Below the pieces are notes generated by a model, which worked only from the letters and a program-made list of their open reading frames with translations, ran no database searches and had not been told where the DNA came from. Shown here piece after piece: positions 5,001 to 63,798 of a DNA stretch of 64,000 bases. The position numbers and the translations under genes were made by a program. Position 1 is the stretch's first letter, and every line of letters starts with the position of its first letter. Origin of the DNA: Octopus vulgaris (Eukaryota); contig OX597816.1 of assembly GCA_951406725.2 (NCBI GenBank), positions 137,082,001 through 137,146,000 on the forward strand, given 5' to 3'.

Positions 5001-5825
5001 TGGATCGCTTCCCTGCCAAAAGAAGGTAAAATCCTGTTCTTTGAGTTTGCCGTTTGAGGGAAGCCTTGTCTCCCGTATCCCAGCAATGTCTATGTTAAGC
5101 CTCTTTAGTTCACGGTCAATGATGGCCGTTTTCCTTGTGTCTTCAACCCTAAGTAGATCATCAGATATTCCAGGGCACAAAATCCTGACATTCCAGCTTG
5201 CCAACCGCAGGACTGGTGTTTTCTTGTCTTTTAGTTGTTTGCCTGGTGCAGAGGTTGCAGGCCGCTTTTCAAGTCATACTCTTAGCTCCAAGCACCCAAT
5301 GAAGCAGGCGGCTTGTGGCGGGTCAGCACCTTATTAACTGGAGGCTGCCCAGCTTGAGGTGGGCAGTAGCTAACCAACAGGACACGGAAGTCTCTCCCAC
5401 CGTCAGAGGTAACCCGTAGCGCCCATATTTTACGCCAATCTGAATGGACTTATCACTCGTGACTGTTACCTCCCGTGTTGTTTCTGCAGCTTTTTTACAG
5501 CAGCACTGAAGTGTCCTCTCCAGTTTTGCGCAGGCCTGGGCTAGAGATAAGAAAGTCCTGGGTAGCCCAATCGTCAGGTTTCCTCTCTCGACCTTGCTGA
5601 TGTAGTCCAAAGGAGTGCAGAGCATTACGTTTGGCACCAGCTTGGTTGCAGGAGCTGCCGGAAGAGTGTCGAGTCGAACACTAAACCGCCTTCGGGGCTC
5701 CACTCCGGATTTCTTTGAAGATTGTCTCCTTTCCGCAACCCTGGATAGGGGCCCATACCGGAGCCAGCTGAGCCCGGAACTCGTGTCAGGCAGGATCGTC
5801 ACTCCCTGTGCGCTACCCACTACCT
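2065..5825 (-). mobile_element. Near-full-length RTE-clade (BovB-like) LINE, frameshifted
   Basis: APE endonuclease (ASWNVR, GDFNARVG, TDHSL; 3774-5204). RT fragments (KAPGKDGIP, QCGFR, FIDLTKAFDSV, LIADD, LLYGSETW, RWLGHV). Terminal CxxC..HxxxC remnant near 2070-2140. ~600-nt 5'UTR. Confidence 0.92.
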
Positions 5826-10666: not shown

Positions 10667-13649
10667 ACTTTGATACTTTGATACTTTGATAGGTTTCGGC
10701 CATTATTGGCCCAGGCCATGTCTAACTTAATAGCACCACCTGGTGAAGTCTTTCAAGTCAGAATTTGGGCACTATGGCCCACTCAAGTAGAGAGTTATTG
10801 TTTACAGAGACATATCCGGGTGTAGGGGGTTTATCCGGGATTTCTTGAAGGAATCTGTCCAAAGACTTCTTGAACCCTATAGGGTCAGTTTCTGTTTTAA
10901 TGTGTTTTGGTGTAATGTTAAAGAGAGCGGGGCCAATTGAGGTGAAATAATTGTGCCGTATTGTTGTTATGAGATGAGAGTGCGATTTTTGTTTTGGGCG
11001 GATGGCACGGGGCCCAAGCCTTGGATGTACCTTAAAGGTGATGCCAACATCATTTGGGCAATGCTGATGGAATATTTTCCACATCATGCAGATGATGTAG
11101 CGCTCACGACGACATTGGAGAGAATAGAGTTTTAGCTTTTCTAGTCGACCCCAATAGTCGAGGCCTGTCATGCCATCTATCTTTTTTGTGATTGCCCTTT
11201 GAGGTGCTTCAACTTTTATGATACCTTGTATTGTGTGGGGAGACCACAGTGGACAACAGTATTCAAGGTGGGATCGGGCAAAAGTGGAGAAGAGAAGGAT
11301 AATGGTGTGGATATCTCTCGACTGGAAAGTTCTGAGAATCCAGGAACACATTCTGCGGGCCATGTCAACTTTGGTGTTTATATGAGTGGCCCAGCTTATG
11401 TTGTTGTCCACAATTACTCCCAAGTCTCTGATGTTGTTGGACGCCGCGAGAGTTTCACCTGAAGGAAGGGAGTATGGGAGTTTCAGGGCATCCTCTTTTC
11501 CAAAGTGGATTAGCTCAAATTTATCCTCGTTCAGCAGCATATTGTTTTTTTCTGCCCATTGGATAACAGCCAGTAGATCTGACTGAAGGCATGTCCGGTC
11601 ACTCGCCTCATTTATGACCTTCTGTAGCTTGGAGTCATCTGCAAAGATTTTTATGTTGCTGTGCTTGATGATGTCATTAATGTCATTAATGTAAATGATG
11701 AAAAGAAGTGGGCCCAGCACAGTGCCTTGCGGAACGCCACTACTGACTTTGGCTGGGCTTGATTTTACCCCTTCAACTACAACATGTTGAGATCTGTCTG
11801 TCAGGAAACACTTGATCCATTTCAGTAACTTTCCAGAGACACCAATGTTGGATAGTTTTTTCAATAGGATCTTGTGATCGACCCTGTCGAAGGCCTTACT
11901 GAAATCAAGGTAGATGACATGGGTGTTGGAGCCCTCTCCCAAAGCTCTCAAAATGTCCTCAAAGTGATGCAGGAGCTGCGTTAGGCAGTCCCTTCCATTA
12001 CGGAACCCATGTTGGTTGGAGATCAGCCGTCTGTTGCTTTCCAGAAATTGGGTTATTCGAGATCTCACCACCCTCTCAAATACCTTGATGATATGAGAGG
12101 TGAGTGAGATCGGACGGTAATTCACTGCAAGGGACTTGTTTCCCTTTTTGAAAACTGGGACAACAGACTGGGACAGAAGGTTTTTTGGAATATAGCCAGC
12201 ATCCAGTGAGTTCTCCACAGATTAGTTGGTGTCGAAACACCTTCAGGACACAAGCAGGGAACCTATCGGGGCCTACTGCTGAATTGTGTTTTATTTCGTT
12301 TATCGCCGCTAAGACATCAGGGGCAATAAACGTTATGTCCGATATAGTGTGTTGGGGGTTGACATCACTGATACAGCCCAGATCGGCCATATCAGGATTG
12401 CTGAAAACAGAGCAGTATTGTTTCTGCAGTATCTCGGCCATGGATTTGGCATTATCTTGGAGAGTGCCAGTTTTGTCAATTAGAGGGCCTACAGTGGAGA
12501 CAGTGACCCTGCGTTTCCTCGCATATGAAAAGAACACTTTGGGGTTGAGTTTGATTTTTTCAATGGCCCACTTCTCCTCAGCTGATCTTTGGTTATTGAT
12601 GAGGGTCTTCATGCATTGTTGGATGTTATATTTTTTGGATTCAAGCAGTGCGATAGCCGTCGAATGTGTGTGTTGCTGTTGGCAGTACTTTAGTTTGTTA
12701 ATTTTTTTGTTTGTTCTTTTTATTTTTCTGATAATGGTTTTTCTGTTTTGGGGGATTCTGCACTTTTTGTTCACAGGTCTTGGTGGGGAGTGTTTTGCAC
12801 ATATGTCTGTGACGGTGTCTACAAAGATCTGCCAAGATGTTTTATGGTTGGTGGAGATGTGTGTATGTGTAAAGGACCAGTCAACATTTGATAGCTCGTT
12901 CCTGATTGCATCCCAGTTGGCTTTATGGAGATCCATGTTGTCAAATGGGTGGGCTGGAGGAAGGTCACTAGGATTAGCTTTCGGCTGGTGGAATTTCATG
13001 TTACAGAGAACCATGTCATGGTCTGAAAGAAGGGTTTTTTCCACTGTAACGTTATGTATAGTGTTAGTGTGGTTACTAAACACTAGGTCCAAAATGTTCT
13101 GATGTCTTGTTGGTGCAAGGACAAGTTGGGACAAGAAAAACTCATTCGTAAAGTCGAAAAGTGACTCCGCTGCTTCTTTGTCAGCGGTTGAGGCGGGAGT
13201 GCTTGGTTTCAAACAGTTTGTAGTCCAGTCAACACAGGGTAGATTGAAGTCTCCCATCATGAGTATGTTGCTAGAATGGCACTGTTGAAGAAAGCACTTA
13301 ATGCTGTTGAGGCATTCTTTAAAGCACAGTATGGGTGTTTGGGGCGGCCTATAGAGCCCAATTACTGTCAGGTCATTGGCTTTGTTGTGCATGGTGACTG
13401 ATTCACAGTAGCCGTTGGAGAATATACTATTTCCATCTGCCGTAAATGAATCATGCAGGAAAATGGCAGTTCCACCCTTCCTCCTGCCGATACGATCCGC
13501 GCGGATGGTTGTGAAATTCTTCACTCTCACTTCGGCTTCCAAGTGGGAGTTGTCAAGGTGGGTCTCAGTGAGAATGAAGAAAGGGATGTGGTGTGAATGG
13601 TTACCAACCCAGTCTTCAATGAATTGGACCTTCCATTTTTGTGCATTGA

Positions 13650-13650
<1 letters not shown>
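10667..13650 (-). mobile_element. 5'-truncated CR1/L2-group LINE (ORF2: APE + RT) with (ATCAAAGT)3 tail
   Basis: ORFs 12076-13542 (YRPP, MGDFN, SDH) and 10758-12218 (QHGFR, YLDFSKAFD, GVPQGTVLGP, FADD) are joined by one frameshift. Short tandem-repeat tail at 10667-10690. Confidence 0.92.
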
Positions 13651-13685
<35 letters not shown>

Positions 13686-13912
13686 GAAATATTAAAATAA
13701 CTAAGTCTCTCTAAAAGAGAACAGCGGCAGCGTTCCCGGAAAATAATAGTTATCGCCATACTAATATGGCATTCTTATAAAAATAAGAAAAAAGCTGTCC
13801 GCTTATTAGCTCCATGAGGCCATCGCCTTAAGTTAGCTATTTGATACACAAACTGTATCCATATAACCTTCGAACAAGGGAGGTCAGTCGCTCCACTACT
13901 ACTTGACCGGCA

Positions 13913-13954
13913 GCTACAGACGCGTTTCGGGGTATTGCCCCTTTTCAATGCAGC
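13913..13954 (-). ncRNA. Minimal type I hammerhead, U3-A8 variant (tandem copy 1)
   Basis: GCTGCA-TTGAAAA-GGGG caata CCCC-GAAA-CGCG-TC-TGTAGC. Palindromic stem III ACGCGT. Confidence 0.7.
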
Positions 13955-14274
13955 GTAGCCAGCCAGTAGGTGTCGCTTCCGACAATCTCTGTTCGATGGT
14001 TTTATTTACCTAGTTTCGGTGGAATACATCCACTTGTTTTCAATAATAGAAATATTAAAATAACTAAGTCTCTCTAAAAGAGAACAGCGGCAGCGTTCCC
14101 GGAAAATAATAGTTATCGCCATACTAATATGGCATTCTTATAAAAATAAGAAAAAAGCTGTCCGCTTATTAGCTCCATGAGGCCATCGCCTTAAGTTAGC
14201 TATTTGATACACAAACTGTATCCATATAACCTTCGAACAAGGGAGGTCAGTCGCTCCACACTACTTGACCGGCA

Positions 14275-14316
14275 GCTACAGACGCGTTTCGGGGTATTGC
14301 CCCTTTTCAATGCAGC
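14275..14316 (-). ncRNA. Minimal type I hammerhead, U3-A8 variant (tandem copy 2)
   Basis: Identical to 13913-13954, one repeat unit away. Confidence 0.7.
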
Positions 14317-14559
14317 GTAGCCAGCCAGTAGGTGTCGCTTCCGACAATCTCTGTTCGATGGTTTTATTTACCTAGTTTACGCGTCTGTAGCTGCCGGTCA
14401 AGTAGTGTGGAGCGACTGACCTCCCTTGTTCGAAGGTTATATGGATACAGTTTGTGTATCAAATAGCTAACTTAAGGCGATGGCCTCATGGAAACTAATA
14501 AGCGGACAGCTTTTTCTTATTTTTATAAGAATGCCATATTAGTATGGCGATAATATTAT

Positions 14560-17960
<3,401 letters not shown>

Positions 17961-23337: not shown

Positions 23338-24825
23338 ATGGTATCCAGAGCATTTTATATTATTTTATTAATTACATTAACGGTGAAGAGTGAAAATAAT
23401 ACGGTTGGAAATGTTATGAAAACGATTGTGTCGGAATACAGTAATTCGACGTCAACTGATAACAATTTCTCTCCGTGGTTTTTTGAACAAATGATAAAAC
23501 TCTTAAACTGCGGTCCTTTACCGAAATTAAACAACAGTCAAATACAATATACTTTGAAATGGGAAGAGGAAAAAATACACCTGCAACAAAAGTGCAACCG
23601 CAATTTTGAAGCAAGCGTAGAGAATATGGCCGATATTATTTGTTGGAATGGTAAATGGATGTATGAAGATAAAAAATGTAAGTTAATAACTTGCCCGATT
23701 TTTCCTAAACCTGCAAACAGTTTCATGATAAATGTTGCATACACATATAACTCTGCTATTCGCTTTTCCTGCCTGTCTGGTTATATTTTACGAGGAAACA
23801 ATTCAATACGTTGTCAAGAAAATAAACAGTGGTCGTCTCTCCCACCAGTTTGTGAAACTATTAAATGTCTCCCACTGCATCCACCCAAACATGGCAATGT
23901 AAACAATACAAATGGAGTTGAAATTAACGAAACAATTCATTTCACTTGCTTAAAACCTTATAGTCTGAAAGGTGAATCTGTATTAACTTGTCTTCAAGAC
24001 GGTAGCTGGAATTTTCCGACACCTGTTTGCACTTTGAAATGTGTTGTACCTGAAATTGCTGGCAGAGTTGTGACTATTTCTGAAGGTACAATTTTAAAAC
24101 CAAGAACCTTAATCAATCAAGGAGAGAAAGTGTTATATTCTTGCAAACGATCCTTCATTCCTGTCGCATTTGGAGTCGTTCAATGCTTTTCAGGTAAATG
24201 GTATCCAGACATACAGTGCAGAAAATCGTGTAAAATTGAGAAACGAAACGGATTGAATTTTATTTTGTCACATAATTTTTCAGTTATTGAATATAGCTGT
24301 TCTGCTGAAGAAACATTGTTGGGATATTCTAAAAGAACCTGTTTAGAGAATGGAACGTGGAGTGGAAAACTTCCACGGTGTGTAAAGAGCTGTCAATTGT
24401 TACCCGTGTTTGGCATGTATAGCTACCGAAATTCAGACACTTTGCAATATCTTCCGTTTGGCAGCACAGTCTTAGAAAACACGAATGTTATTTATTCGTG
24501 TGAACTTCCTAATATGAATAACTCCAACGATAGTGTGATATGTCAAAATGGTGTATTGACCCCCAAACCACGCTGTTCACATAGAAATATTCATCTGATG
24601 TATTCCAGAGTCATGTTTACCCATAAATCGTCAGACTATTATGTTTGTGAAACAAAATACACTTGCGAATTTTTTGGTTACAGACAGAAATCATGCACTA
24701 GTAGTAAGTGTGCATTTTTTAGTAACGATCTATGTGCCAACATAGACTTTAACAATGCAACATCAGAAATATATATTAGTGCAAAGACTACTAATTGTTG
24801 TGCTATGCAATGTTATGATGATTAA
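23338..24825 (+). CDS. Intronless secreted multi-Sushi/CCP protein (signal peptide + 6 CCP + Cys-rich C-terminal domain), paralogue 1, 495 aa
   Basis: Uninterrupted ORF. Hydrophobic N-terminus MVSRAFYIILLITLTVKS. Six C..P..C..G....C...W....C modules (e.g. CPIFPKPAN..FSCLSGYILRGNNSIRCQENKQWSSLPPVC). No TM segment. TATAAAA 107 nt upstream. Confidence 0.9.
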   Translation: MVSRAFYIILLITLTVKSENNTVGNVMKTIVSEYSNSTSTDNNFSPWFFEQMIKLLNCGPLPKLNNSQIQYTLKWEEEKIHLQQKCNRNFEASVENMADIICWNGKWMYEDKKCKLITCPIFPKPANSFMINVAYTYNSAIRFSCLSGYILRGNNSIRCQENKQWSSLPPVCETIKCLPLHPPKHGNVNNTNGVEINETIHFTCLKPYSLKGESVLTCLQDGSWNFPTPVCTLKCVVPEIAGRVVTISEGTILKPRTLINQGEKVLYSCKRSFIPVAFGVVQCFSGKWYPDIQCRKSCKIEKRNGLNFILSHNFSVIEYSCSAEETLLGYSKRTCLENGTWSGKLPRCVKSCQLLPVFGMYSYRNSDTLQYLPFGSTVLENTNVIYSCELPNMNNSNDSVICQNGVLTPKPRCSHRNIHLMYSRVMFTHKSSDYYVCETKYTCEFFGYRQKSCTSSKCAFFSNDLCANIDFNNATSEIYISAKTTNCCAMQCYDD

Positions 24826-28364: not shown

Positions 28365-28609
28365 ACACCGGTTGTCAAGCGGTGATAGGGGTACAGACAC
28401 AAAGACGCACACATACACACACACACACATGCACACACACATATATATGTGCGACGGGCTTCTTTCAGTTTCTGTCTATCAAATGCACTCACAAGGCTTT
28501 GGTCGGCTCGAGGCTATAATAGAAGACTCGTGCCCAAGGTTCCACACTGTGGGACTGAACCCGGATCCATATGGTTAAGAAGTAAGCTTCTTAACACGCA
28601 GCCACGGCT
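28365..28609 (-). mobile_element. SINE family A, partial (duplicated at ~62586-62752)
   Basis: gacgggcttctttcagtttc...gggactgaacccgg...gcagccac. Confidence 0.78.
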
Positions 28610-29655
28610 ATATAAATAAATAGTTTTATTGTAGCTGTGGTTCCCTGTCTGTTGCACCATCTCAGCTTCTATTTGTAGAACACTCTTTATCCCTCAAGAA
28701 GCTTACTTCCACAAATCAATAACCTACCAACTTGCCGTCATTCCTTACAATACATACTTATTGTATATAATACAACCCTTCTTTATCCCTCGCCTCCCAC
28801 AACGATGCGTCATTAACATGCAATCCTCACACCAAAGCTGCACTGACTTGGTGAACAAAGTCCGCGAAAACATACTCCAATGGTGGTGATACAAATCTAA
28901 AGGACTTCAAAAGCATAGAGTAAAGGAAATAACATCTATCAAAGCAACAACGAATCTCTCTCGTTGCCAAGAAGTTAACGCACTTAAAACTTTGAAAATC
29001 GCGACTACTGCTCGGTTTCACCATCGCTGACAATCTATGTTGGTGGTGCTCTTCAGGATTAGAAAATATTCAGTCTGAAACATTACTAACCATCCACAAA
29101 TGCCAATGAAATATTCTTTGCAGCACTGCTCTCACCCATACAGCAGCGCAGCTGTTACACGTAGAGATATCTTAGAACACATCTAAACATCTAAGACACT
29201 CGACTCATGAGCCACTCACAAGCCGCTACTAAGTTCACTCCAATATCTGACCCACAGATATATTTCATCTCTACCTGCGTTTTCTACCATTATTCCAATG
29301 AACTTAACTCGTTAAAACTTCCTGGTTTTGTATCACCTCCATTAGCCCACATTTGATCATTTGGTTATCCATTTGGTGTCCATTGATTCAGGCCTGAAAT
29401 AATCACATTCTCCTGGCATTTCTGACTAAACCAGAAGCTCTAAATATTGTTGTATATAATGGTTTGTTATTTAGGCATAAGATCAATAATTTTGAGAGGA
29501 TAGGATACATCGACAACGTAACTTAAATGTGGTGCTTTATGTTGTCGACCCCGAAATGATGATTAGCAAAGATGATCTTGACGGGATTTGTACTCAGAAT
29601 GTAAAAAGTCGGAACAAATACTACAAGGAATTTATTTCAATGTTCTAAGGTAATA

Positions 29656-30919
29656 TCAGGTTATCCCATAAGTTCTGTCCGATTTTACCCTTTTTAAAAT
29701 AGTATTTTAGAATGTCTAATGGAATTAAAAATTATTTTTATGCATTTGTGTACATTTAAACTAATTAAATATTATTTTATAGAATAATAGAATTAAAATT
29801 TATTTGATTAAAACCCTTTCTAACATGGAAATATTCAAAGAACATTTAAGGCACATAATGAGTACAAAAAAGGAAACTCTGCAGCCGAAGCGACTCGAAA
29901 CATACACTAAATTTATGGGAAAGAATTCTTGAATGAAAGAACTTGCGGAAGATGGTTTGCAAAATTCAGAGGAAGAGATTTCAACCTTGAAGATGAAGAT
30001 CGAAAAGGATATCCAGTTGAGTTTCATAAGCTTCTTGAGGCAATACTTGAAGAAAATCCTGCATTATCAGTTGAAGAATTGGCAATAAAGTTTAGTTCAA
30101 ACCATGCAACTGTTCATAGTCATCATCAACAACTTGGAAAGGTTCCCAAACTTGGAAAACTGGTGCTTCATAAATTGTCCGAAAGCAACCGCAAATCCCG
30201 AGGTGACATCTGCTCTTCTCTCCATTCTTGCGAACTCATTTCATCCTTTTTGAATAGACTTGTAACTGGTGACGAAAAATGGATCTTCTATCGAAATGTT
30301 AAACGTCGTAAACAGTAGCTTGGTAAAAGGGGAAAGGCTCAACCACAACCGCGAAGGGAACTTCATGGAAAAAGAGTTCTTCCCTCTATCTGGTGGGATT
30401 GCAAAGGTGTAATTCACTTTGAATTGTTACCATTTAATGTATCAATCAATGCTCAAGTCTACTGTCGGCAATTAGAGCGTTTGAACCAAGCTTTGAAGAA
30501 AAAGAGACCTACTTTAGTGAATCGAAAAGGAGTGATGTTTCATCAGGACAATGCGCGACCCCATACTGCAAAGATCTCATCACAGAAGATCGAAGAGCTT
30601 GTTTGGGCAGAAATTCATCATCCGCCTCATTCAACGCGACCTTGCTCCTTCAGACTACCATTTGTTTCGTAGTTTACAGAATCATTTGGGGGACATAACT
30701 TTCGTAAGCCAGGAGGAGGTCGATATTGACATTTCAGAGTTCTTTGCTTTGAAACCAAAAAAGTTTTACATTGATGGGATAAAAAAACTTGTAAATAGAT
30801 GGAAGGAAGTCATAGATAATCAGGAAAAGTACATTGGTGATTAAATTTCAATTAAATATAACATTCGATCACTTGTTTTCTTTATTCAAAATTCGGACAG
30901 AACTTATGGGACGACCTGA
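29656..30919 (+). mobile_element. Full-length, inactivated mariner (DD34D) transposon
   Basis: TIRs tcaggttatcccataagttctgtccga / tcggacagaacttatgggacgacctga, flanked by TA dinucleotides. Transposase 29825-30844 has VTGDEKW, HQDNARPH and DLAPSDY motifs, with stops and frameshifts. Confidence 0.93.
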
Positions 30920-31065
30920 TATAATTCGTAAAACATGTAAATTAGTTTGTACAAATAGGGTGCGCACCACTGGTTTGCTATAACGTAAGCCAGACATTTA
31001 AAAATCATTTTTGGTCAAAATCCCGCCTACTATGTTCATATACTCTAATCTCTCTTTAACCAATA

Positions 31066-31238
31066 ATGTCTCAATTTCAAAATAAAACTGAACGAAATTG
31101 TTTTGAGTGGATTGGAGGAAATGAGCGTTAGCGAGCGTATAAAAGGCTCCCTAAAAAAACATTGAAATAAAACAAATGAACAGATACACTTTAAACACTA
31201 CAAGTCCTTTTCATGAAAGAAAAAGTTTATGAAAACTT
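31066..31238 (+). promoter_or_regulatory. Orphan copy of the Sushi-gene promoter/5'UTR, truncated just before the ATG
   Basis: atgtctcaatttcaaaat...gcgagcgTATAAAAgg...cactacaagtccttttcatga...aaaact matches the other promoters. No CDS follows. Confidence 0.6.
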
Positions 31239-31696: not shown

Positions 31697-31748
<52 letters not shown>

Positions 31749-31831
31749 GCTGAGGATGTAGTATGAAGACACGTAACCAGGCAATGTATATACTTCTATA
31801 TGTATATACTTTGTGAAAACGAAATACGCAC

Positions 31832-31870
<39 letters not shown>

Positions 31871-31987
31871 TATACATATAATGCACTTATATATGTTTAT
31901 ATATATGTATGTGCGTGTATGTGTGTCAAGCAAAAGCCCCACCTACTTACATTTTTTTCATATACACTATTTCCGTTCTAATTAACT

Positions 31988-32167
31988 ATGTCTCAATTTT
32001 AAAATAAGACAGAACAAAATTATTTATTGCTGACTGGAGGAAAAGAGGGTTAAGGAGAGTATAAAAGACCCCCCAAGAAGACATTAGAATGAAAGTGAAC
32101 AAGCGACTACACTTTAAACACTACAAGTCCTTTTCATGATAGACAAAAGTATATAAAAACTGAGAGA
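31988..32167 (+). promoter_or_regulatory. Promoter/5'UTR of paralogue 2, TATAAAA at 32060-32066
   Basis: Homologous to 23150-23337 and to the reverse complement of 58006-58190. Confidence 0.6.
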
Positions 32168-33646
32168 ATGGTATCCAATACATTTTATTTCCTATTCTTT
32201 ATCTTATTCACAGTGAAGAGTGAAAATAATACAGTTGCAAATGTTATGAAAAAGATTGTGTCGGAATACAGTAATTCGACGTCAACCTGCAACAACTTTG
32301 CTCCGTGGTTTTTGAACAAATGATAAAGCTCCTAAACTGCGGTCCTTTACCGAAATTAAACAGCAGTCGAATTCAATATACTTTGAAATGGGAAGAGGAA
32401 AAAATACACCTGCAACAAAAGTGCAACCGCAATTTTGAAGCAAGCGTAGAGAATACAGCCGATATTATTTGTTGGAATGGTAAATGGATGTATGAAGATA
32501 AAAGATGTAAGTTAATAACTTGCCCTACTTTTCCTAAACCTGCACACAGTTTCATGATAAATATTGCATACACATATAACTCTGTTATTCACTTTTACCT
32601 GTGTTTCTGATTATATTTTACGAGGAAACAATTCAATACGTTGTCAAGAAAATAAACAGTGGTCGTCTCTACCACCAATCTGTGAAATTGTTAAATGTCT
32701 CCCACCGCATCCACCCAAACATGGCAATGTAAACAATACAAATGGAGTTGAAATTAACGAAACAATTCATTTCACTTGCTTAAAACCTTATAGTCTGAAA
32801 GGTGAATCTGTATTAACTTGTCTTCAAGACGGTAGCTGGAATTTTCCGACACCTGTTTGCACTTTGAAATGTGTTGTACCTGAAATTGCTGGCAGAGTTG
32901 TGACTATTTCTGAAGGTACAATTTTAAAACCAAGAACCTTAATCAATCAAGGAGAGAAAGTGTTATATTCTTGCAAACGATCCTTCATTCCTGTCGCATT
33001 TGGAGTCGTTCAATGCTTTTCAGGTAAATGGTATCCAGACATACAGTGCAGAAAATCGTGTAAAATTGAGAAACGAAACGGATTGAATTTTATTTTGTCA
33101 CATAATTTTTCAGTTATTGAATATAGCTGTTCTGCTGAAGAAACATTGTTGGGATATTCTAAAAGAACCTGTTTAGAGAATGGAACGTGGAGTGGAAAAC
33201 TTCCACGGTGTGTAAAGAACTGTCAATTGTTATACAAGTCTAACATACATAGCTACCGAAATTCAGACACTTTGCAATATCTTCCATTTGGCAGCACAGT
33301 CTTAGAAAACACGAACGTTACTTATTCGTGTGAAGTTCCTAGTATGAATAACTCCAACGATAGTGTGATATGTCAAAATGGTGTATTGACCCCCAAACCA
33401 CGCTGTTCATATAGAGATATTCAGCTGATAGATTACAAAGTCAGTTTTACCAATGGATTGGAAAATTATTATGTTTGTGAAACAAAATACACTTGCAAAT
33501 TTTTTGGTTACAGACAGAAATCATGCTATTGGGATAGTTGCAGGTATTATCGATGTGTCAAAATAGGCTTTAACAATGCAACATCAGAAATATATATTGA
33601 TGCAGAGGTTGATACTTGTTGTACTTTGAGGTGTGAGGATGATTAA
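32168..33646 (+). pseudogene. Paralogue 2 of the Sushi/CCP gene, disrupted by a -1 and a +1 indel in T-runs (pseudogene or assembly error)
   Basis: ATG at 32168 gives MVSNTFYFLFFILFTVKS. T5 instead of T6 at ~32309-32313 causes a premature TGA at ~32321. An extra T at ~32594-32597 restores the frame into ORF 32564-33646. The span of 1479 nt equals paralogue 3. Confidence 0.8.
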
Positions 33647-35639: not shown

Positions 35640-36720
35640 AAACAGAAAAGAGGAATTTCGATTATCCCCACGTGGTGAGTTGTAATGTATATAAGAAATT
35701 AAAAAGGAAAATACGCACACTTACATAGTTTTAATATAATTTTTAATATATCAACCGGTCTCGCAATCGCTATTCATGATATCATGTTTTACTTATTTGA
35801 ATATATATTTTTTCTTAAGAAGAAATTCTGTCCATGTTGTGTGTGATGAAATTCACGAGTGAATGACTTCACAAGTAGATAAATAAAGGGAGGTAATTGG
35901 TTGTCGTTATTATTGTTATTGTTGTCGGTAAGGAAGATAACTGTTCAGCTTTCGGTAATGGGTGGGGAGGATTATATATGTGTACAGACAGAGACAAGTT
36001 TAAAAAACCTTGTTTTGCAGGGGATTTATGTACAGTGATGTAATCGTGAATTGAAATATGTAAAAAGATAAAAGTTGGTTATGCGTGCATATTAAGACGT
36101 GTTTACTATTTTTCAATGAAAAAAGTTTCTTTATTTAAACGTTCTAGTTGAGAGATTGCGTCTTTGCACTGGTAGAAAGGGAAGCCCGTGAAATTTGGTT
36201 TGATGTTACCTGCACATTTTTCTATATGTTCACTGAGAAGAATTTGTCTGTATTAGGGGAAACGGATTTGCTCTTTATGTAGAGTGGTTCTCTTTCTCAA
36301 GGTCATACTCGTTTGTCCAATATAGTGGTGTCCGTAACCCGAGCAGGTTATTACATAAATTAGGTTCTCAGAGGCCCAAGTGAAACTAATTTTAATTGTA
36401 AATCTCTGTCCTTGTTGGAAAAGGAAATCCGAACCTTCAAGCAGGTTGGGGCAGGTTCCACAGTTTGGGCGTCCACATTTTTCAACCGTTGGTTTTGTGG
36501 TTGTTTTGTAGTGTTTTGTGTCTAATTGTTTGGCACGTTTAATTCCCTCGTCGATAAGTGAGGGTGGATATTGTCTTTCAATAAGTGTTGTTTTGAGGTC
36601 TTGAAGACGAAGGTCCCGAGTTGTTCTATCAGACACTATTGTGCAGATCCTTTTTGCTAAATTGAAAGGGATGTTTATTTTGATGTGTTTCGGGTGGCAT
36701 GAGTTAAAGAGAAGATATCA
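35640..36720 (-). mobile_element. Penelope-like element 3' part (GIY-YIG) with downstream terminal repeat region
   Basis: ORF 36253-36636: CGRPNCGTC...NLIYVITC....YIGQT...R...H. Degenerate hammerhead downstream at 35748-35782. Confidence 0.75.
35748..35782 (-). ncRNA. Degenerate hammerhead-like motif downstream of Penelope ORF
   Basis: ATATC-ATGAATA-gcgattgc-GAGA-CCGG-TT-GATAT. Stem I and the ACCGGT palindrome are intact; the core is mutated. Confidence 0.45.
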
Positions 36721-39074: not shown

Positions 39075-39363
39075 GTACAATTGCTACACCAAAGACTTTA
39101 TATATATATATACTCGCTGAGAATGACGTATGAAGACACGTAACCATGCAATGTATATACTCGTATACGCGTTTACTTTGGAACAGCTAAACATATAAAC
39201 GCTTATACATAGATTTTGACATACTAAAGAATTGTTAAAGGATAAAGTGAAAAAATATAATTAATCTTTTACGATTCCGATTAATCTGTCAAGTCCAAGG
39301 CTTATTTATTCAGATTCTTCTAAATTAACCGTGCATCATTTCATAATTTCCAGATTTTGAAGA

Positions 39364-39403
<40 letters not shown>

Positions 39404-39700
39404 TTTGAAATGACGTTTTGGAATAAGTGAGAGAAGCTGTATCGGTTCAGTTTAAACATGAAGCAGTTAAAATATTTCGACCTGATAATGCTACTGTGTG
39501 AAAGGAAATAGATAGATAAATAGGTAGCTAGATAGGTAGATAGATAGATCGATAGAGAAAAGTAAGAAAATAAGGATTCTATATACCCATATAGGCCCGT
39601 ATAGATACATATGCATGAGAAAGTGATTATATAGATATATATAAACAGTACACATAAGCGTGCTTATATGGCAACATAAAATGTTATTATGTATGAGAGA

Positions 39701-39731
<31 letters not shown>

Positions 39732-39996
39732 AACGTGTATATATGGATATAGAAAAGGGAGAGTATATGACGGGCTTCTTTTAGTTTCCGTCCACCAAAT
39801 CCATTCTGAAAGCAAATCTTTTCCCTTTGAATGGCAGATTGAGAAATTAATCTTTTGTAACTAAACACTTTAAAACTTCGGACACTAGTAGAATGTGTCA
39901 TATAAAACAACTTTTACTCTTAGCATTTTTGAGAAAAGTTTCTATTTACGAAGTTATTTCGTATTAAAGTTGACGTATTTCGGTAATTTCAACCAA

Positions 39997-40630
39997 TCAA
40001 TGACGTGTATTCAGCTGAATAAAATTATTGCTGTTGTTTGTCAACAACATCTTCCGGCGGTGTATATTTCGTTTGTCACTGTTATTTATGACATTTCATC
40101 TCAGTTACGTTTGTATGCATAAATGAGTGTATCTGAAGCATGTATACTTCATATCACCACCATAATCCTGTTTTTCAGCTACTATTTTCAGAGACTTTCC
40201 CCCCTCCCCCTCTAATTTCTTCATTTTCGCTTTTTCCGTAACTCTAACCCTAACCCTAAAATCCTAATCCTAAAATCCTAGCCCTAAATCCCTGACCCTA
40301 CCCTAAGACCCTAACCCTAGCCCTAAAACCTTAACCCTAACCGTAAAATCCTAATCCTAACCCTAACCCTAACTCTAAAACCCTTAAGCTAAAGCCCTAA
40401 CCCTAACTCTAAAACCCTAACCCTAATGCCCCAACCCTAACCCTAAAGCTCTAACCCTAAAATCCTAAAAGCCTAACCCTAACCCCAAAATCCCAAAAGC
40501 CTAACCCTAAAACCAGTACAAATGCACGAACGATGTTATAAATAACAGTGACAAACGAAATATACACCGCCGGAAGTTGTTGTTGACAAACAACGGCAGT
40601 AATTTTATTCAGCTGAATACACGTCATTGA
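39997..40630. repeat. ~100-bp inverted arms enclosing a degenerate (CCCTAA)n array
   Basis: Arms at 39997-40095 and 40533-40630; telomere-like repeats at ~40237-40512. Confidence 0.85.
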
Positions 40631-40687
40631 CTGACTTGATGCTTCAACTTAAGTACCTTATTCAAATGAATCTTAATTATTTCTGAT

Positions 40688-44318: not shown

Positions 44319-44503
44319 ATAAATATTAGGGAATAAATCCAAATTTACAAGGAAAAATCAGATTTAAGATTGAATCCAATTTTATAGTAAAATATTATAT
44401 TATAATAAATTAGAGACAAAACCACTATTATGCAAAACAAACAAAGAAAGACTTAAGCCAATACATAAAATAATTTATATAAATTAAAATTTAACAAATG
44501 AAT

Positions 44504-44555
44504 AACCACTACGATCGTTTCGTGTCAGCACATCTTAGACATTCTTCAGGTGGTT
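44504..44555 (-). ncRNA. Type I hammerhead, canonical core (left inverted arm)
   Basis: Reverse complement of 46726-46777. Confidence 0.8.
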
Positions 44556-46620
44556 TCTAAACCTAAAATATAAAATATAATCAATATTTTTACGATATAA
44601 ATATCTATATAATCTAAATAAACTCTATTATTGAATATGATTATATCGAAATCGACTATAATGTTAATTATTAACTTTAATTTATAAGGTAGAAAATCCA
44701 TATGCTAATATCCATTTTAGTCTATATCTACTTATATAGATATTTGAAATAACTAATATATATAAATTATCAATGAAAATATATATAAATATTATAATCA
44801 AGATCTAAAATAGACTCTATAAACGATTGTATATAATGAAAACCTAATATATTTAATTTCTCATATTTAAAGATGAAATAGCTAATTTCAAAAAACAAAA
44901 TATATATATATATACACACATGCTCATGCACCTATATACATGTATGTATATAAACACATCCAAATACGCACACAAACTCACACACACACATATACATCTA
45001 CACACACACATAAACATATAGACACAGATATATCCATAATGCAGCCCTACACCTCTACACATCACATATTCATACTCTCACACACACACATACAATCACT
45101 CATTCATAAACACATACTCTCAACAGGACACTAACACAGAGGAGAAATAACATCCAGTATCCGCAGATACTCAACCACATACTTATAGAAATATTTCATT
45201 CTTAGTAAAATAGTATTAAATACTATATACTATATATATGTAATAAACATATATAAATACGTAAACAAACACACACACACATATATATCTATACATACAC
45301 AAATTTAGTAAAATAGTATTAAATACTATATACTATATGTATATAACATATATAAACTCGTAAACAAACACACACACACACACATATCTATACATACACA
45401 AACCCATACAGACACGGATATGTTCTAAATGCAGCCCTATACCTCTACACATCAATTATGCACACCCGCACACACACACACACATACAATCACTCATACA
45501 TAAACGTATGTACACTGCAATACACTAACACATAGAAGAAATAACACCAATAGCCACATATACACAACCACAAACTTATAAGAATATTCCTTACTCAGTA
45601 ATATAGTATTAAAAAATACTATAAGTACTAATCAAATTATGAATGGGAAAAATTATCTAATAAATTATGCTATTATATTAGACATGGCCTAAATCATCTT
45701 AAGTCGAAACCTATCTATTTATCAAAAATTTATCTAAATTATTTAATAACTAATAACATAGAAAATTACGATAAATAGATCATTACATAAACAGCAAGAT
45801 TAACATAAGCAGAATATTATTACTCATAAGGCTAATACAATATTAACAATTTGGAGATAAAAAAAAACTTACCTTCTTAGCGAGTTATAAACTATGAAGT
45901 AATTTGAATCACAATACATCTTAAACAGCGTTTAAGAAATTACATTATAAACAGAAAATAGAATAAAATATTAAATTCTTTGCGCGTGAGGAACCAACGT
46001 TATTAAAGATTATGAATGGAATATTATATGTTTATCATTGTAAAAGGAATGAATTCACAAAAGAATAAAATCTCTCTATACTATAGTATTCAATAATAAA
46101 TAAAACAACCATTATAAACGAAATCCATCTAATGATCAAAAACCACCCATTCCCAAATACACAAAAAAACCTATATAACAATCCCCCCACATATCATAAA
46201 TCACCTCCCACACACCCCATCACATACAAACTAGTACTCATAACAAATACATCCATACCAATTAAAAATTCACAGTACAACCACACACACGTACACACAA
46301 TTATACAAGAAAACATCCAAACATATACATGCACATACATACATACACACACACACACATACACGCACAAACATGCATATACACACATACACAACCCCAT
46401 ACATACACCCATACATACACATACACACACACACTCACATACATTCACACACACATACACACACATATGTACACCCCCCCACACCCATACACATATACAC
46501 ACTCATACATACATATACGTTTATGAATGAGTGATTGTACTCGCGCGCGCGCGAGCATGCACAAGCAATGTGCAGAAGTATAGGATGCACTATAAACACA
46601 TACATACATACATACATACA

Positions 46621-46655
<35 letters not shown>

Positions 46656-46725
46656 GGGTACATTTAGATTATATAGATATTTATATCGTAAAAATATTGA
46701 TTATATTTTATATTTTAGGTTTAGA

Positions 46726-46777
46726 AACCACCTGAAGAATGTCTAAGATGTGCTGACACGAAACGATCGTAGTGGTT
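46726..46777 (+). ncRNA. Type I hammerhead, canonical core (right inverted arm)
   Basis: AACCAC-CTGAAGA-aTGTC taagatgtgct GACAc-GAAA-CGATCG-TA-GTGGTT. Palindromic stem III ACGATCGT. Confidence 0.8.
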
Positions 46778-46881
46778 ATTCATTTGTTAAATTTTAATTT
46801 ATATAAATTATTTTATGTATTGGCTTAAGTCTTTCTTTGTTTGATTTGCATAATAGTGGTTTTGTCTCTAATTTATTATAA

Positions 46882-46958
<77 letters not shown>

Positions 46959-51160: not shown

Positions 51161-51870
<710 letters not shown>

Positions 51871-53463: not shown

Positions 53464-55070
53464 TTAAGCCTTATAATATTTGAAAGTATTAGTTAATTTA
53501 TGCATAGAAGATGGTCTAAATTCAGATCTTTTATTAATTAGTTTGTTTTTATCTTTGGATTTAATGATTTTTAGGAGTTCTATGCAACATAGCTGGCACC
53601 CTGTTCTATTATTTTTATAAGACGCAGCTGATCCGATAATGGACCACCTAAGGCTAAATTCGATATTATTGTCCTTAAGTTCCCAAATTTTTCTTGATAA
53701 TGATGTACTACTAGCCTTGTGTTTGAGCCTAAAGGATGACCGGTGGTTATAGAATCTAGATTTCCAGATGGATGAGCACCCAATGTATGTAAGAATGTTT
53801 GCTTCAGTAATTACTTCATAGGAATGAACTACATTTTTAGCTAAGAAATTTCCATGTAAAGGACAGGCTGTTGCATCCACACAATTGCATCCGAATTACC
53901 ATTTCCCGGCTGTCTGTTATTAATCTGTGGACAGATAATTTCGGTATGGTTGTTGTCAAGGTTGCTATTATGGTAGATAGAAGCTCCGCTAATATTTTCG
54001 CCATTGTTACTGCTATTATCACTATTGGTGCTATTTAAGTTGTTCCGGCCTATATTTCTTCTACTTCCAGTACCGATATTGGATCTATCTTCTACATTTC
54101 TATTATTGCTAGTTATATTGCTATTACAATTGGTATAATTAAATTCACAATTATTATTCGATGTGGACTGAGTTATCACATTAAAAGTTGTAATAGTATT
54201 ATCTTCATTAGTTATATAATTATTGGGTATAAGATTATCTCCGTTATTGTAATGGGTGTTGTTACTAGCTGTTTCAATATTGCTATTACTATCCAGATTA
54301 TTATTGTTATTATATTGGCTGTTACTATTATTAATGTGGCTATAGTCATTATCAACATTAAATTCGCTGTTTAGGGAACTACTGTTATTTATCTCTAAGT
54401 TGTCAGCTTGGCGGTTAGGTATCGAAGTTATAGGGGTAATGCTTTGGCTATTGTTATTAGTTTGGCTACTACCAATGTTAACACCTGGACTGTTGGGGTT
54501 TGAATGATCATTATTATTTACTCTCAAAGTAGCTGTTCTAATTTTAATATTATTATGTTTAGCTATGAGACAGCTCATGTTAGGTAGAGTTGAGTATGAT
54601 ATCCTAATAGTTTTATTTGAAAAGATACTCCTATATTTATGAGTGGGTGGGAAGTTATTGGAAATTATTGAAAATATTTTTTTGCATAATTTACCCTTAA
54701 CCGCTATATTATATGGTATGTTATACCATATATAGTTACGTAATCTACTGTTCTTACTCCTGTGTCTTCTAATATTATCTGTGCTACACTCATCGGTAGG
54801 GTTTTCATTAACTAAATTTCTATTGGTGCGATTTCTATGTTTGTTTCCTAGTCTTGTTTGAATTTAAATTTGAATTTGTATTAGTTGAATCTGTGTTTTT
54901 ATTGCAACTAATACAAATTCAAATTTAAATGAATGGTTTTGGAATCCTTAGTTCGTTTATATGATGAAGTTTTATTGATGACGGATGTTCTAGGCGGTTC
55001 ATCATATGATTTTTTGCCGAAAGATATTTTCTGGGGGTATCCAGCACTAGAGAGGGCTTGGTTATAATGA
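53464..55070 (-). mobile_element. Penelope-like element 3' part with Asn-rich inserts and GIY-YIG endonuclease
   Basis: CPLHGN...VVH....YIGCSS.WKSRFYNH..SF...TSLSRKIWELK...WSII...CQLC..E...INKRSE. Upstream YNQAL..AGY and ISYS..PNM segments. Confidence 0.75.
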
Positions 55071-56526: not shown

Positions 56527-58005
56527 TTAATCATCATTGCACTGCATAATACAACAACGATCAACGGTGTCTTTAACATATATTTCTGATGTTGCATTGT
56601 TAAAGCCTATATTAGCACAAATAAAATCCTGACAGTTTGCCCAATCGCATGCTTTCTGATTGTAACCAAAAAAATTGCAAGAATATTTTGTGTCACAAAT
56701 ATTATATAACCACCATCCATCGTTGAAAGTAAGGTTGGAACCTATCAGCTCGATATCTCTATATGGACAGCGTGGTTTTGGGGTCAATACGCCATTATGA
56801 CACATCACAAACTTGTTGGAGTTCTTCACGTAAGGAAATTGACATGAATACGTAATATTCGTGTTTTCTGGAACCGTGCTACCAAATGGAAGATATTGCA
56901 AAGTGTCTGAATTTCGGTAGCTATATATGTTAGACTTGTATAACAATTGACAGTTCTTTACACACCGTGGAAGTTTTCCACTCCACGTTCCATTTTCTAA
57001 ACATGTCCTTTTAGAATCTCCCAACAACGTTTCTTCAGCAGAACAGCTATATTCAATAACTGAAAAATTATGTGACAAAATATAATTTAATCCATGTAGT
57101 TTCTCAATTTTGCACGTTTTTCTGCAAAGTATGTCTGGATACCATTTACTTGAAAAGCATTGAACGACTCCAAATGCGAGAGGAATGAAGGATCGTTTGC
57201 ACGAATATAACACTTTCTCTCCTTGATTGATTAAGGTTCTTGGTTTTAAAATTGTACCTTCAGAAATAGTCACCACACTGCCAGCAATTTCAGGTACAAC
57301 ACATTTCAAAATGCAGACAGGTGCCGGAAAGCTCCAGCTACCGCCTTGAAGACAAGTTAATACAGCTTCACCTTTCAGACTATAAGGTCTAAAGCAACTG
57401 AAAGAAATTGTTTCGTTCACTTTAATTTCATTTATATTGTTTACATTGCCATGTTTGGGTGGATGCAGTGGGAGACATTTAACAATTTCACAGATTGGTG
57501 GTAGAGACGACCACTGTTTATTTTCTTGACAACGTATTGAATTGTTTCCTCGCAAAATATAATCAGAAAGGCAGTAAAAGCGAATAACAGAGTTATATGT
57601 GTATGCAATATTTATCATGAAACTGTGTGCAGGTTTAGGAAAAATGGGGCAAGTTATTAACTTACATTTTCTATCTTCATAAATCCATTTACCATTCCAA
57701 CAAATAATATCGGCTGTATTCTCTACGCTTGCTTCAAAATAGCGGTTGCACTTTTGTTGCAGGTGTATTTTTTCCTCTTCCCATTTCAAAGTATATTGAA
57801 TTCGACTGTTGTTTAATTTCGGTAACGGACCGCAGTTTAGGATTTTTATCATTTGTTCAAGAAACCACGGAGTATAGTTTTTGCAGGTTGACGTCGAATT
57901 ACTGTATTCCGACACAATCTTTTTCATAACATTTGCAACTGTATTATTTTCACTCTTCACCGTGAATAAGATAAAGAAAAGGAAATAAAATGTATTGGAT
58001 ACCAT
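56527..58005 (-). CDS. Intronless secreted multi-Sushi/CCP protein, paralogue 3, 492 aa
   Basis: Uninterrupted ORF colinear with paralogue 1: signal peptide, six CCP modules, 8-Cys C-terminal domain ending CNDD. TATAAAA 108 nt upstream. Confidence 0.9.
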   Translation of the reverse strand: MVSNTFYFLFFILFTVKSENNTVANVMKKIVSEYSNSTSTCKNYTPWFLEQMIKILNCGPLPKLNNSRIQYTLKWEEEKIHLQQKCNRYFEASVENTADIICWNGKWIYEDRKCKLITCPIFPKPAHSFMINIAYTYNSVIRFYCLSDYILRGNNSIRCQENKQWSSLPPICEIVKCLPLHPPKHGNVNNINEIKVNETISFSCFRPYSLKGEAVLTCLQGGSWSFPAPVCILKCVVPEIAGSVVTISEGTILKPRTLINQGEKVLYSCKRSFIPLAFGVVQCFSSKWYPDILCRKTCKIEKLHGLNYILSHNFSVIEYSCSAEETLLGDSKRTCLENGTWSGKLPRCVKNCQLLYKSNIYSYRNSDTLQYLPFGSTVPENTNITYSCQFPYVKNSNKFVMCHNGVLTPKPRCPYRDIELIGSNLTFNDGWWLYNICDTKYSCNFFGYNQKACDWANCQDFICANIGFNNATSEIYVKDTVDRCCIMQCNDD

Positions 58006-58720: not shown

Positions 58721-58784
<64 letters not shown>

Positions 58785-58787
<3 letters not shown>

Positions 58788-59283
58788 ATGAAGACACGTA
58801 ACTGTATGTTTATACTTTGTGAAAGCGAAATATACAAACGCTTACACATAGATGCTGACATACCAAAGTATTGTGAAAAGATGAAAAAAATATAGTTAAC
58901 CTTTTACGATTCCGATTAATCTGTCAAGTCCAAGGCTTATTTATTCAGATTTTTCTAAATTAACCATGCATCATTTCATAATTTCCAGATTTTGAAGATG
59001 AGATTACTTATTTTTGAAATGACGTTTTGTAATAAGTGAGAGAAGCTGTATCGTTTCAGTGTAAACATGAAGTAGTTAAAATATTTCGACCTGATAATGC
59101 TTATGGGTGAAAGGAAATAGATAGATAAATAGGTAGCTAGATAGGTAGATAGATAGATAGATAGAGAAAAGTAAGAAAATAAGGATTCTATATACCCATA
59201 TAGGCCCGTATAGATATATATGCATGGGAAAGGGATCATTTAAATATATACAGACAGTACATATAAGCTTGCACATATGGCAC
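58785..59283 (+). repeat. Duplicated block homologous to 39125-39672
   Basis: gtatgaagacacgtaac...ttttacgattccgattaatctgtcaagtccaaggc...ataggcccgtatagat is shared. Confidence 0.85.
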
Positions 59284-61246: not shown

Positions 61247-61499
61247 TATTTTTCTTCACTCGTTTTTTAGTGGTCTAATTTGTTTTATGTCCATTGTCAC
61301 GCATCTGTGACCTTTTCAGCAACACTTCGTTTCCGTGTGTGTTCTTGTTCCACTTACTCCATTCCGTTCTTCTAAGATATGTATCCTTATGTGCGCATGC
61401 GTTTCTGTCCTTGTTTGTGAGTGTGTGTGTATGTGTGTGCGTGTATGCTTGTGTGTGTGTGTATGCTTGTGTGTGTGTGTGTGTATGTATATATATATA

Positions 61500-62150
61500 A
61501 CTTAACTTAGAATAACTTAGAAAGGTTTTGGCCAGTATTTGCCCAGACCCTGTCTAACTTAATAGCACCACCTGGCGAAGTCTTTCAGTTCAGGATTTGG
61601 GCACCAAGGCCCATTCGAGCAGAGAGTTATTGTTTGCGGAGACATATCCGGGTGTGGGTGGTTTGTCCGGTACTGTTTGAAGGAATTTGTCCAAAGACTT
61701 CTTGAATTTTGTGTGGTCAGTTTCTTTTTTGACGTGTCCTGGTGTAATGTTGAAGAGAGCGGGTCCAATTGAGGTGAAATAGTTGTGCCGTATTGTCGTT
61801 ATGTGATGCGATTTAGATTTTTGTTGTGGACGGATGGCACGTGGTCCAAGCCTTGGATGCATTTTGAAGGTGATGCCAACATCATTCGGACAGTGCTGAT
61901 GGAATATTTTCCACATCATACAGATAATGTAGCGTTCACGGCGTCGTTGGAGTGAATACAATTTCAGCTTCTCTAGTCTACCCCAGTAGTCAAGGTCTGA
62001 CATGCCATCTATCTTTTTTGTGATTGACCTTTGGGGAGCTTCAATTCTCATAATATTTTGTTTTGTGTAGGGAGACCACAGTGGACAGCAGTATTCAAGG
62101 TGGGGTCGGGCAAAAGTGGAGAAGAGAAGGATAATAGCGTGGGAATCTCT
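61500..62150 (-). mobile_element. 3' fragment of a CR1/L2-group LINE related to the 10.7-13.6 kb element
   Basis: ORF 61590-62219 contains HLEYCCPLWSP...DKPPTPGYV, nearly identical to 10758-12218. Short repeat tail near 61500. Confidence 0.88.
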
Positions 62151-63798
62151 CATATATATACACATATATAAATACATATATATATATCTATATATATATG
62201 TGTGTGTGTGTGTATGCATATATATATAGTTTTTAGTAACAGTGTGGTCTTCCCATCAACTCCATCCTCTCACCCCATTGGGCAGCTGCTGTCCCGAGAA
62301 AAAATGGTACAGTTTCTGTATTCTTCTGTGTATGTGTGTTCGCCCACGGTGTTGCCATCGTGATGGTAGTTGTTGATATTGCCATCGATGTCACCGCCGC
62401 TGCTGTTGAATGTGTTAGTAGTGTTGTTGACATCATCATGTGCGTATGTATTTCTGTGTGTGTGTGTGTGTGTGTGCGTGTATAGACTCGCTTCGTATGT
62501 ATCCATGCCCTTTATATACTTTTATTTGATAATCGAACGGTGTGAGCTAAAACCATTTTTTTCAACAGGGACCTAAGCACAACAACACCGGTTGTCAAGC
62601 GGTGATAGGGGTAGAGACACAAAGACGCACACACATGCACACATACATATATATGTACGACGGGCTTCTTTCAGTTTCTGGCTATCAAATGCACTCACAA
62701 GGCTTTGGTCGGCTCGAGGCTATAATAGAAGACTTAACTTGCAGCCACGGCTATATAAATAAATAGTTTTATTGTAGCTGTGGTTCCCTGTCTGTTGCAC
62801 CATCTCAGCTTCTATTTGTAGAACACTCTTTATCCCTCAAGAAGCTTACTTCCACAAATCAATAACCTACCAACTTGCCGTCATTCCTTACAATACATAC
62901 TTATTGTATATAATACAACCCTTCTTTATCCCTCGCCTCCCACAACGATGCGTCATTAACATGCAATCCTCACACCAAAGCTGCACTGACTTGGTGAACA
63001 AAGTCCGCAAAAACATACTCCAATGGTGGTGATACAAATCTAAAGGACTTCAAAAGCATAGAGTAAAGGAAATAACATCTATCAAAGCAACAACGAATCT
63101 CTCTCGTTGCCAAGAAGTTAACGCACTTAAAACTTTGAAAATCGCGACTACTGCTCGGTTTCACCATCGCTGACAATCTATGTTGGTGGTGCTCTTCAGG
63201 ATTAGAAAATATTCAGTCTGAAACATTACTAACCATCCACAAATGCCAATGAAATATTATTTGCAGCACTGCTCTCACCCATACAGCAGCGCAGCTGTTA
63301 CACGTAGAGATATCTTAGAACACATCTAAACATCTAAGACACTCGACTCATGAGCCACTCACAAGCCGCTACTAAGTTCACTCCAATATCTGACCCACAG
63401 ATATATTTCATCTCTACCTGCGTTTTCTACCATTATTCCAATGAACTTAACTCGTTAAAACTTCCTGGTTTTGTATCACCTCCATTAGCCCACATTTGAT
63501 CCTTTGGTTATCCATTTGGTGTCCATTGATTCAGGCCTGAAATAATCACATTCTCCTGGCATTTCTGGCTAAACCAGAAGCTCTAAATATTGTTGTATAT
63601 AATGGTTTGTTATTTAGGCATAAGATCAATAATTTTGAGAGGATAGGATACATCGACAACGTAACTTAAATGTGGTGCTTTATGTTGTCGACCCCGAAAT
63701 GATGATTAGCAAAGATGATCTTGACGGGATTTGTACTCAGAATGTAAAAAGTCGGAACAAATACTACAAGGAATTTATTTCAATGTTCTAAGGTAATA

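Follow-up and report, generated by a model that had tools for sequence, protein, structure and literature searches.

Gene conversion and hybrid genes have been documented among the CCP paralogues CFH and CFHR1 (PMC1626556), and partial gene conversion has been proposed for two octopod gene clusters, those of tyrosinase and reflectin in Argonauta argo (PMC9635652). The clustered Sp185/333 genes have been described as mosaics with microsatellite flanks (PMC3342357), and architectures that combine SRCR and Sushi domains occur in sea urchin and starfish (PMC10855680). Among openly visible papers, we found no description of an octopod sushi/head family or of its conversion. The locus described here lies in Octopus vulgaris, in a 64,000-nt stretch (the window) of animal DNA that is rich in microsatellites and contains remnants of LINE, SINE and mariner elements, and it holds three related single-frame sushi-repeat genes, copies 1, 2 and 3 (Table 1).

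Table 1. Coordinates of the gene copies, of the segments of copy 2 and of associated features in the window.
Feature	Position	Strand	Description
Copy 1	23338..24825	+	Intact ORF of 495 aa without introns; N-terminus hydrophobic, then six CCP-like modules with 24 Cys and a head with 8 Cys
Partner tract in copy 1, likely donor	23877..24388	+	Residues 180-350, CCP3-CCP5
Duplicated intergenic segment	27704..29857	+	Repeated at 61290-64000; about 4% diverged to 28590, then 7 mismatches/1260 bp
Promoter-only remnant of a fourth unit	31035..31238	+	Matches the three promoters at 73-77%; not followed by coding sequence
Copy 2 upstream flank and promoter	31746..32167	+	Copy-3-like; 12/217 differences in 31950-32167 vs 73/216 to copy 1
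Copy 2	32168..33646	+	Mosaic coding region, two one-base frameshifts, stop at codon 52
First frameshift and premature TGA, copy 2	32309..32323	+	T run at 32309-32313 one base shorter than in copy 1; TGA at 32321-32323
Second frameshift, copy 2	32597..32599	+	One extra base
512-bp identity run in copy 2	32707..33218	+	Switch zones 32691-32738 and 33179-33218
Copy-3-like patch in copy 2	33219..33250	+	9/9 informative sites; derived Y356 and S358 common only to copies 2 and 3
Older copy-1-like segment in copy 2	33251..33406	+	5/156 to copy 1, 24/156 to copy 3
Head of copy 2	33407..33646	+	Hypervariable loops, conserved 8-Cys framework; predicted SRCR-like fold modelled on copy 1 head
Copy 3	56527..58005	-	Intact intronless ORF, 492 aa, inverted
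Second copy of the intergenic segment	61290..64000	+	Leaves the window inside the start of a mariner element

The intact proteins of this family begin with a hydrophobic N-terminus and have no hydrophobic segment at the C-terminus, and for this reason they are likely to be secreted. Sushi was the only Pfam domain detected in the copies (E 8e-30, three stretches), Foldseek gave matches to CCP proteins (E 6e-18), and the cysteine pattern places the six four-Cys modules at residues 58-114, 119-172, 177-231, 235-294, 298-348 and 352-413. The stalks of the three copies are 85-93% identical to one another and their heads 51-56%. Four family proteins used as tblastn queries against the window revealed no coding copy beyond these three, and neither the copy 1 nor the copy 3 protein is present in the protein collection by exact look-up.

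Eleven relatives were found at E<=1e-5, with Octopus bimaculoides, O. sinensis and Argonauta hians as named sources and 48-80% identity to copy 3; in the searches made, the family appears restricted to octopods (Octopus, Argonauta). Several members occur in other octopod species, and the single open frame of the genes described here extends over 100% of the full-length relatives. When a profile was run against 1.84 billion representatives, the best 150 matches were dominated by long SVEP1-like repeat proteins, and among these 150 only three octopod proteins, already known, aligned beyond a few CCPs. Searches with a head profile returned nine octopod members among longer proteins, all previously found, and one additional O. 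bimaculoides fragment among shorter ones; the ESM Atlas yielded no usable match (0.89 Sushi, 0.76 pestivirus E2). In one relative, P0010, another N-terminus comes after a CCP block, as if a gene model had merged two neighbouring gene copies; P0010 was excluded from all alignments because of the repeated N-terminus.

The window also contains other repeats and mobile-element remains. At 39994-40633, inverted arms of 101 bp (95%) surround a degenerate array that resembles telomere repeats (18 CCCTAA units within 40200-40520), and at 44397-46884 inverted arms of 223 bp, 99.6% identical, lie 2 kb apart and probably mark a non-autonomous DNA transposon of young age. Local direct repeats that are almost perfect measure 337 bp at 13680-14378 and 176 bp at 51161-51787, broken LINE reverse transcriptase/endonuclease frames are found on the minus strand at 2204-5273, 10758-13710, 14827-17237 and 61590-62255, and the fragments at 36253-36717 and 53464-53895 are ones that we take to be GIY-YIG-like.

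The original prediction had presented copy 2 as a gene whose promoter, signal peptide and CCP1-2 resemble copy 3 and whose stalk carries a 512-bp tract identical to copy 1. Both statements were borne out in a three-way DNA alignment of the copies, in which informative sites were counted for each segment. Such sites place copy 2 with copy 3 rather than with copy 1 by 67 to 6 in the promoter, 21 to 2 in the signal region and 16 to 6 in CCP1-2; copy 2 differs from copies 3 and 1 at 5 and 24 of 143 positions in the signal and N-terminus, and at 15 and 25 of 395 positions in 32311-32706. Throughout the following 512 positions copies 1 and 2 show no mismatch, and the run is bordered by a mismatch at each end; copy 3 differs from copy 2 at 37/512, and all informative sites (37/37) join copy 2 with copy 1 and none with copy 3. 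The sequence then turns copy-3-like for 32 bp, with one difference from copy 3 and ten from copy 1 and with nine informative sites to none, before a 156-bp segment in which 21 informative sites go with copy 1 and 2 with copy 3. These two switches had been read from the motifs NCQLLYKSNI and MNNSNDSVICQNG, both of which were located, as were PICEIVK and, in copies 2 and 3, MVSNTFYFLFF. Copy 2 had further been said to end in a head of its own, which is true of part of it only: 12 head sites are private to copy 2, but 35 are copy-1-like and 24 copy-3-like, with 14 different in all three copies, and the head differs from that of copy 1 at 50/240 positions and from that of copy 3 at 61/240.

Because the switch points fall within zones (Table 1), the 512 bp are the length of an identity run and not of the exchange, and the exchanged piece measures 440-528 bp. 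Zero differences bound the divergence of the tract below 0.6% (95% bound). The longest run shared by copies 1 and 2 takes in 37 of the 215 polymorphic CDS sites, compared with a maximum of 23 in 100,000 permutations; when the stalk alone is permuted, the run is 37 of 130 sites and the maximum 20. The max-chi2 value of 92.3 was reached in 0/10,000 permutations and puts the main switch between 32690 and 32739. At silent sites of the tract copies 1 and 2 differ at 0/118, an outcome with P about 2e-5 at the flanking rate.

Segment-wise protein trees comprised the three copies, with X placed in copy 2 where its frame breaks, together with 10 of the 11 relatives and one fragment; rows of <60% coverage were dropped. 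The topology of these trees changes at the tract. Residues 1-179 join copy 2 with copy 3 (UFBoot 96), residues 180-350 join copy 1 with copy 2 (97), and CCP6 does the same (80); in the head tree no grouping among the copies is resolved. Derived residues found in copies 2 and 3 only (4N, 11F, 13L, 24A, 356Y, 358S) lie on both sides of the tract, those found in copies 1 and 2 only are 193G, 330Y and 393M, and copies 1 and 3 have none to themselves. Two residues are common to all three window copies and absent from every other octopod protein compared, a sign of homogenisation within the species. The recurrent ectopic exchange in the stalk that had been proposed is thus supported by the tree switch, by tracts of layered age (0% and 3.2%) and by the two residues confined to the window copies. 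In tests on six of the eleven outside proteins, all of them from other assemblies, a max-chi2 break was detected in 5/60 triplets after Bonferroni correction and in 12/60 at p<0.01, a signal that regional rate variation could imitate or add to; shuffling is probably a trait of the family. O. sinensis P0004 was considered as a patchwork of copies 1 and 3, without significance (p 0.61, 0.07).

Additional copies of neighbouring DNA are present in the window. The promoter-only remnant of a fourth unit stops just short of where the start codon would lie and continues into an AT microsatellite. The two copies of the intergenic segment change abruptly from about 4% divergence to 99.4% identity (28598-29857 vs 62741-64000, p 5e-6), which points either to another conversion-like event, here in non-coding sequence, or to a duplication of very young age. 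Since the second copy leaves the window, another gene unit may follow after 64000, and hidden donor paralogues are plausible. The flank upstream of copies 2 and 3 is partly repeated, with no gene attached, at 39099-39673 and 58770-59282. A decayed mariner occupies 29654-30921; it has terminal inverted repeats, its transposase is broken, and its left end recurs at 63800-64000 within the duplicated segment.

The offsets of the two frameshifts in copy 2, which the original prediction had not mentioned, cancel, yet the frame between them ends at codon 52 from the ATG. The mosaic yields no protein as assembled because it is frameshifted, and in this state copy 2 is probably a young pseudogene. Its frame would have been lost recently, since the head cysteines are intact and no in-frame stop appears when the sequence is read in the frame of copy 1. 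Both frameshifts are at homopolymer or paralogue-discordant positions, which are typical of polishing errors. Local indel noise looks low, with a single indel counted across 7,487 bp that comprise intact ORFs and near-identical duplicates; by a crude estimate, two indel errors in 967 bp of copy 2 would have P 0.008 (0.16 at the upper bound).

These sites bear on the possibility that the perfect identity, and perhaps both frameshifts, are a product of assembly or polishing in which reads of copy 1 overwrote a similar stretch of copy 2. The complete lack of differences in the tract fits this account, as does the position of the indels, and a duplicate of 99.4% identity at the edge of the window is a hint that repeats were left unresolved. 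It would, however, explain the identity alone and not the mosaic. Reads of copy 1 could remove no more than a few mismatches where copy 2 already resembled copy 1. The low local indel noise speaks against two such errors in copy 2, and base 32706, at the boundary, encodes a proline that is present in other octopod members. The adjoining 156 bp (33251-33406) are not the result of assembly collapse, because they are copy-1-like yet not identical, with five differences and private changes. We hold an artefact to be improbable. Still less can be said for purifying selection or chance as the keeper of the identity, which we regard as practically negligible: CCP4-5 are indeed the most conserved modules, but purifying selection cannot explain the tract because copy 3 differs there at 12/118 silent sites (12 of 37 differing sites in all), no permutation in 100,000 reproduced the run, the identity would have P 6e-8 even at 3.2% divergence, and copy 2 is frameshifted.

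The direction of exchange and the origin of copy 2 as a whole offer more room for disagreement. With 37/512 differing positions relative to copy 3, the tract exceeds the background between copies 2 and 3 (20/538, p 0.014) and is similar to that between copies 1 and 3 (48/539, p 0.37), and this favours copy 1 as the donor; silent sites give no direction (12/118 vs 7/110 and 15.5/111). Copy 2, with 13 private codons and an intermediate position throughout, is the likely recipient. The reverse transfer from copy 2 to copy 1, or the derivation of both from an unseen paralogue, perhaps with copy 3 as a recipient too, seems to us unlikely on balance but deserving of some weight. In the tract tree it is copy 3 and not copy 1 that groups with O. 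sinensis P0004 (77), a putative counterpart of copy 1 whose head is nearest copy 1 (68%), and copy 3 has 69 private codons and a CCP6 that groups weakly with another lineage (65), so that copy 1 or copy 3 may also have been recipients. The promoter remnant and the duplicate that leaves the window suggest more units than are visible here, and other species have several members; the total divergence and the intermediate codons of copy 2 nevertheless argue for copy 1 as the source. An anti-Lepore hybrid, in which unequal crossover joined the 5' half of copy 3 to the 3' half of copy 1 and conversions came later, appears rather improbable. It would agree with the gene order (copy 1, hybrid, copy 3), with the copy-3-like 5' half, with a silent divergence of copy 2 in CCP6 plus head that is copy-1-like (dS 0.07 vs 0.30), and with a distal 3' flank nearer to copy 1 (52 vs 34 sites). 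Yet at least three switches are present, the 3' UTR is copy-3-like over its initial 40 aligned bases (12 vs 2 sites), and copy 3 is inverted; moreover, divergence is 21% between the distal 3' flank and copy 1 but 5.5% between the 5' flank and copy 3, so the two halves of copy 2 are not of one age. A single unequal crossover fits neither the several switches nor the 3' flanks, which are only 79% identical.

Real and recurrent gene conversion is thus the explanation that we prefer and consider fairly probable on comparison of the copies: copy 2 is a mosaic of copy-3-like and copy-1-like segments, likely built by repeated conversion between tandem paralogues. In the latest event, 440-528 bp of copy 1 (CCP3-5) would have been copied into copy 2, recently enough to leave <0.6% divergence. 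Strand invasion would begin and resolve in the conserved stalk, so that stalk segments are traded among copies, and the head loops, being too divergent or selected to differ, would leave each copy with its own binding surface. The frame of copy 2 would have been lost recently as well. In the least certain step, the proteins would act as secreted, glycosylated rods (11-12 sequons) that display an SRCR-like recognition head in skin mucus.

For the head itself, sequence comparison with Pfam and PDB gave nothing: the Pfam SRCR profile found no match at E<=5 in 13/13 heads, and a search against PDB sequences none at E<=10. The SRCR motif occurs in none of the 162 collected proteins. An AlphaFold model of the copy 1 head (82 aa) reached pLDDT 68.5 and is without helix; four other models remained below 55. 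Foldseek with this model gave weak matches, the first being the SRCR domain of SCARA1 (E 0.92). A comparison with 48,161 chains by VIA-align yielded 23 rows at Z>=2, of which the top 20 are SRCR-domain regions spanning 69-79 of the 82 residues; the best row has Z 5.2 (below 8, a range that the tool calls common), rmsd 3.1 and 74/82 residues aligned. By protein name and range, these regions come from enteropeptidase, TMPRSS13, hepsin, TMPRSS2, CD6, CD5, SCARA5, CD5L, CD163, factor I, LOXL2 and Pit54. The structural matches thus belong to a single family and cover the whole domain, and we lean towards an SRCR origin of the head, as a degenerate SRCR-like fold predicted from the model.

In six full-length members, 35/81 head columns carry three or more states, compared with 0-2 per module in CCP1-5 and 9/64 in CCP6, and the variation is clustered at about 419-435, 454-468 and 481-486, between invariant framework residues (C, FFGY, FNNATSE); each of the three window heads has eight Cys. 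The proposal that the head escapes homogenisation agrees with this far greater variability, but it fits the framework of copies 1 and 2 less well. Head codons that encode the same residue differ silently at 1/44 between copies 1 and 2 and at 5/42 and 7/39 in the other pairs, from which it follows that the framework of copies 1 and 2 is closely related and that change is concentrated in the loops. In a codon model, omega between copies 1 and 2 is about 3.7 in the head (p 0.011) and 3.5 in CCP6 plus head (p 0.002); the other head pairs give 0.67 and 0.93 and the three-way comparison 1.3 (p 0.43), with 24 rows tested, and stalk pairs with copy 3 give 0.5-0.6. These values suggest diversifying selection on the head, although micro-conversion of framework patches would produce an equal pattern. 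The tail of the copy 2 head (residues 470-495) is 85% identical to P0162, and as a cross-species partner this protein received no support from the whole-head tree.

In a skin-mucus proteome of O. vulgaris, one high-confidence spectrum among the matches listed, VVTISEGTILKPR, was assigned to 12 proteins from other species, the first of which is named 'complement factor H-like' (PMC10138644). This peptide maps to CCP4 within the tract and is preceded by arginine in copies 1 and 2 and by serine in copy 3. It shows that some family member reaches the skin mucus of the octopus and says nothing on an immune role, which we infer from the mucus detection together with the weak fold match. One could tentatively go further and see here an octopod mucosal recognition family, with a positively selected, hypervariable, SRCR-derived head on a stalk of six CCPs encoded without introns, in which conversion swaps stalks and promoters while copies are born and die, as a counterpart of the factor-H-related and SpTransformer families; this broader view we hold more doubtful than the mosaic origin of copy 2.

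Few diversified recognition families are known in cephalopods, and this one is readily testable, with single-exon genes and small heads. Whole-gene trees and short-read mapping would mislead in this sushi-gene cluster. Names such as 'complement factor H-like' are automatic. Factor H and other RCA proteins are secreted chains of CCPs alone, encoded by a multi-exon gene with about one exon per CCP, whereas the octopod proteins have an 82-aa non-CCP head and an N-terminal helical segment. Judged by architecture and gene structure, the octopod family is not the factor H family. The value of the locus would lie in a clean, base-resolved example of exchange and in the exposure of an uncharacterised family, mislabelled by automatic annotation, with a hypervariable head of likely SRCR fold.

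Human CFH/CFHR1-5 (RCA) are likewise tandem, secreted CCP-repeat paralogues that trade segments by conversion and non-allelic recombination (PMC1626556); unlike them, the octopod genes are intronless, carry a non-CCP head and exchange segments in the stalk instead of at the C-terminal binding end. The echinoderm SRCR/Sushi proteins also combine CCP and SRCR domains in invertebrates (PMC10855680), but the octopod head is shorter (82 aa), escapes the Pfam profile and is SRCR-like by predicted fold only. Sea urchin Sp185/333 (SpTransformer) genes are similarly clustered and mosaic, with microsatellite-rich flanks and with conversion and segmental duplication proposed as their source (PMC3342357); the two families have no common domains, the octopod genes are without the presence/absence patterns of elements, and immune function is shown for Sp185/333, whereas for the octopod genes it is a proposal. 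The mechanism is textbook and has been proposed earlier for octopod tandem clusters. The Argonauta argo clusters, too, are octopod tandem paralogues with a near-identical segment amid diverged sequence, including one inverted reflectin member (PMC9635652). They encode other proteins, however, and at the present locus the breakpoints are resolved to <50 bp, two partners alternate along one gene, and a variable head is kept.
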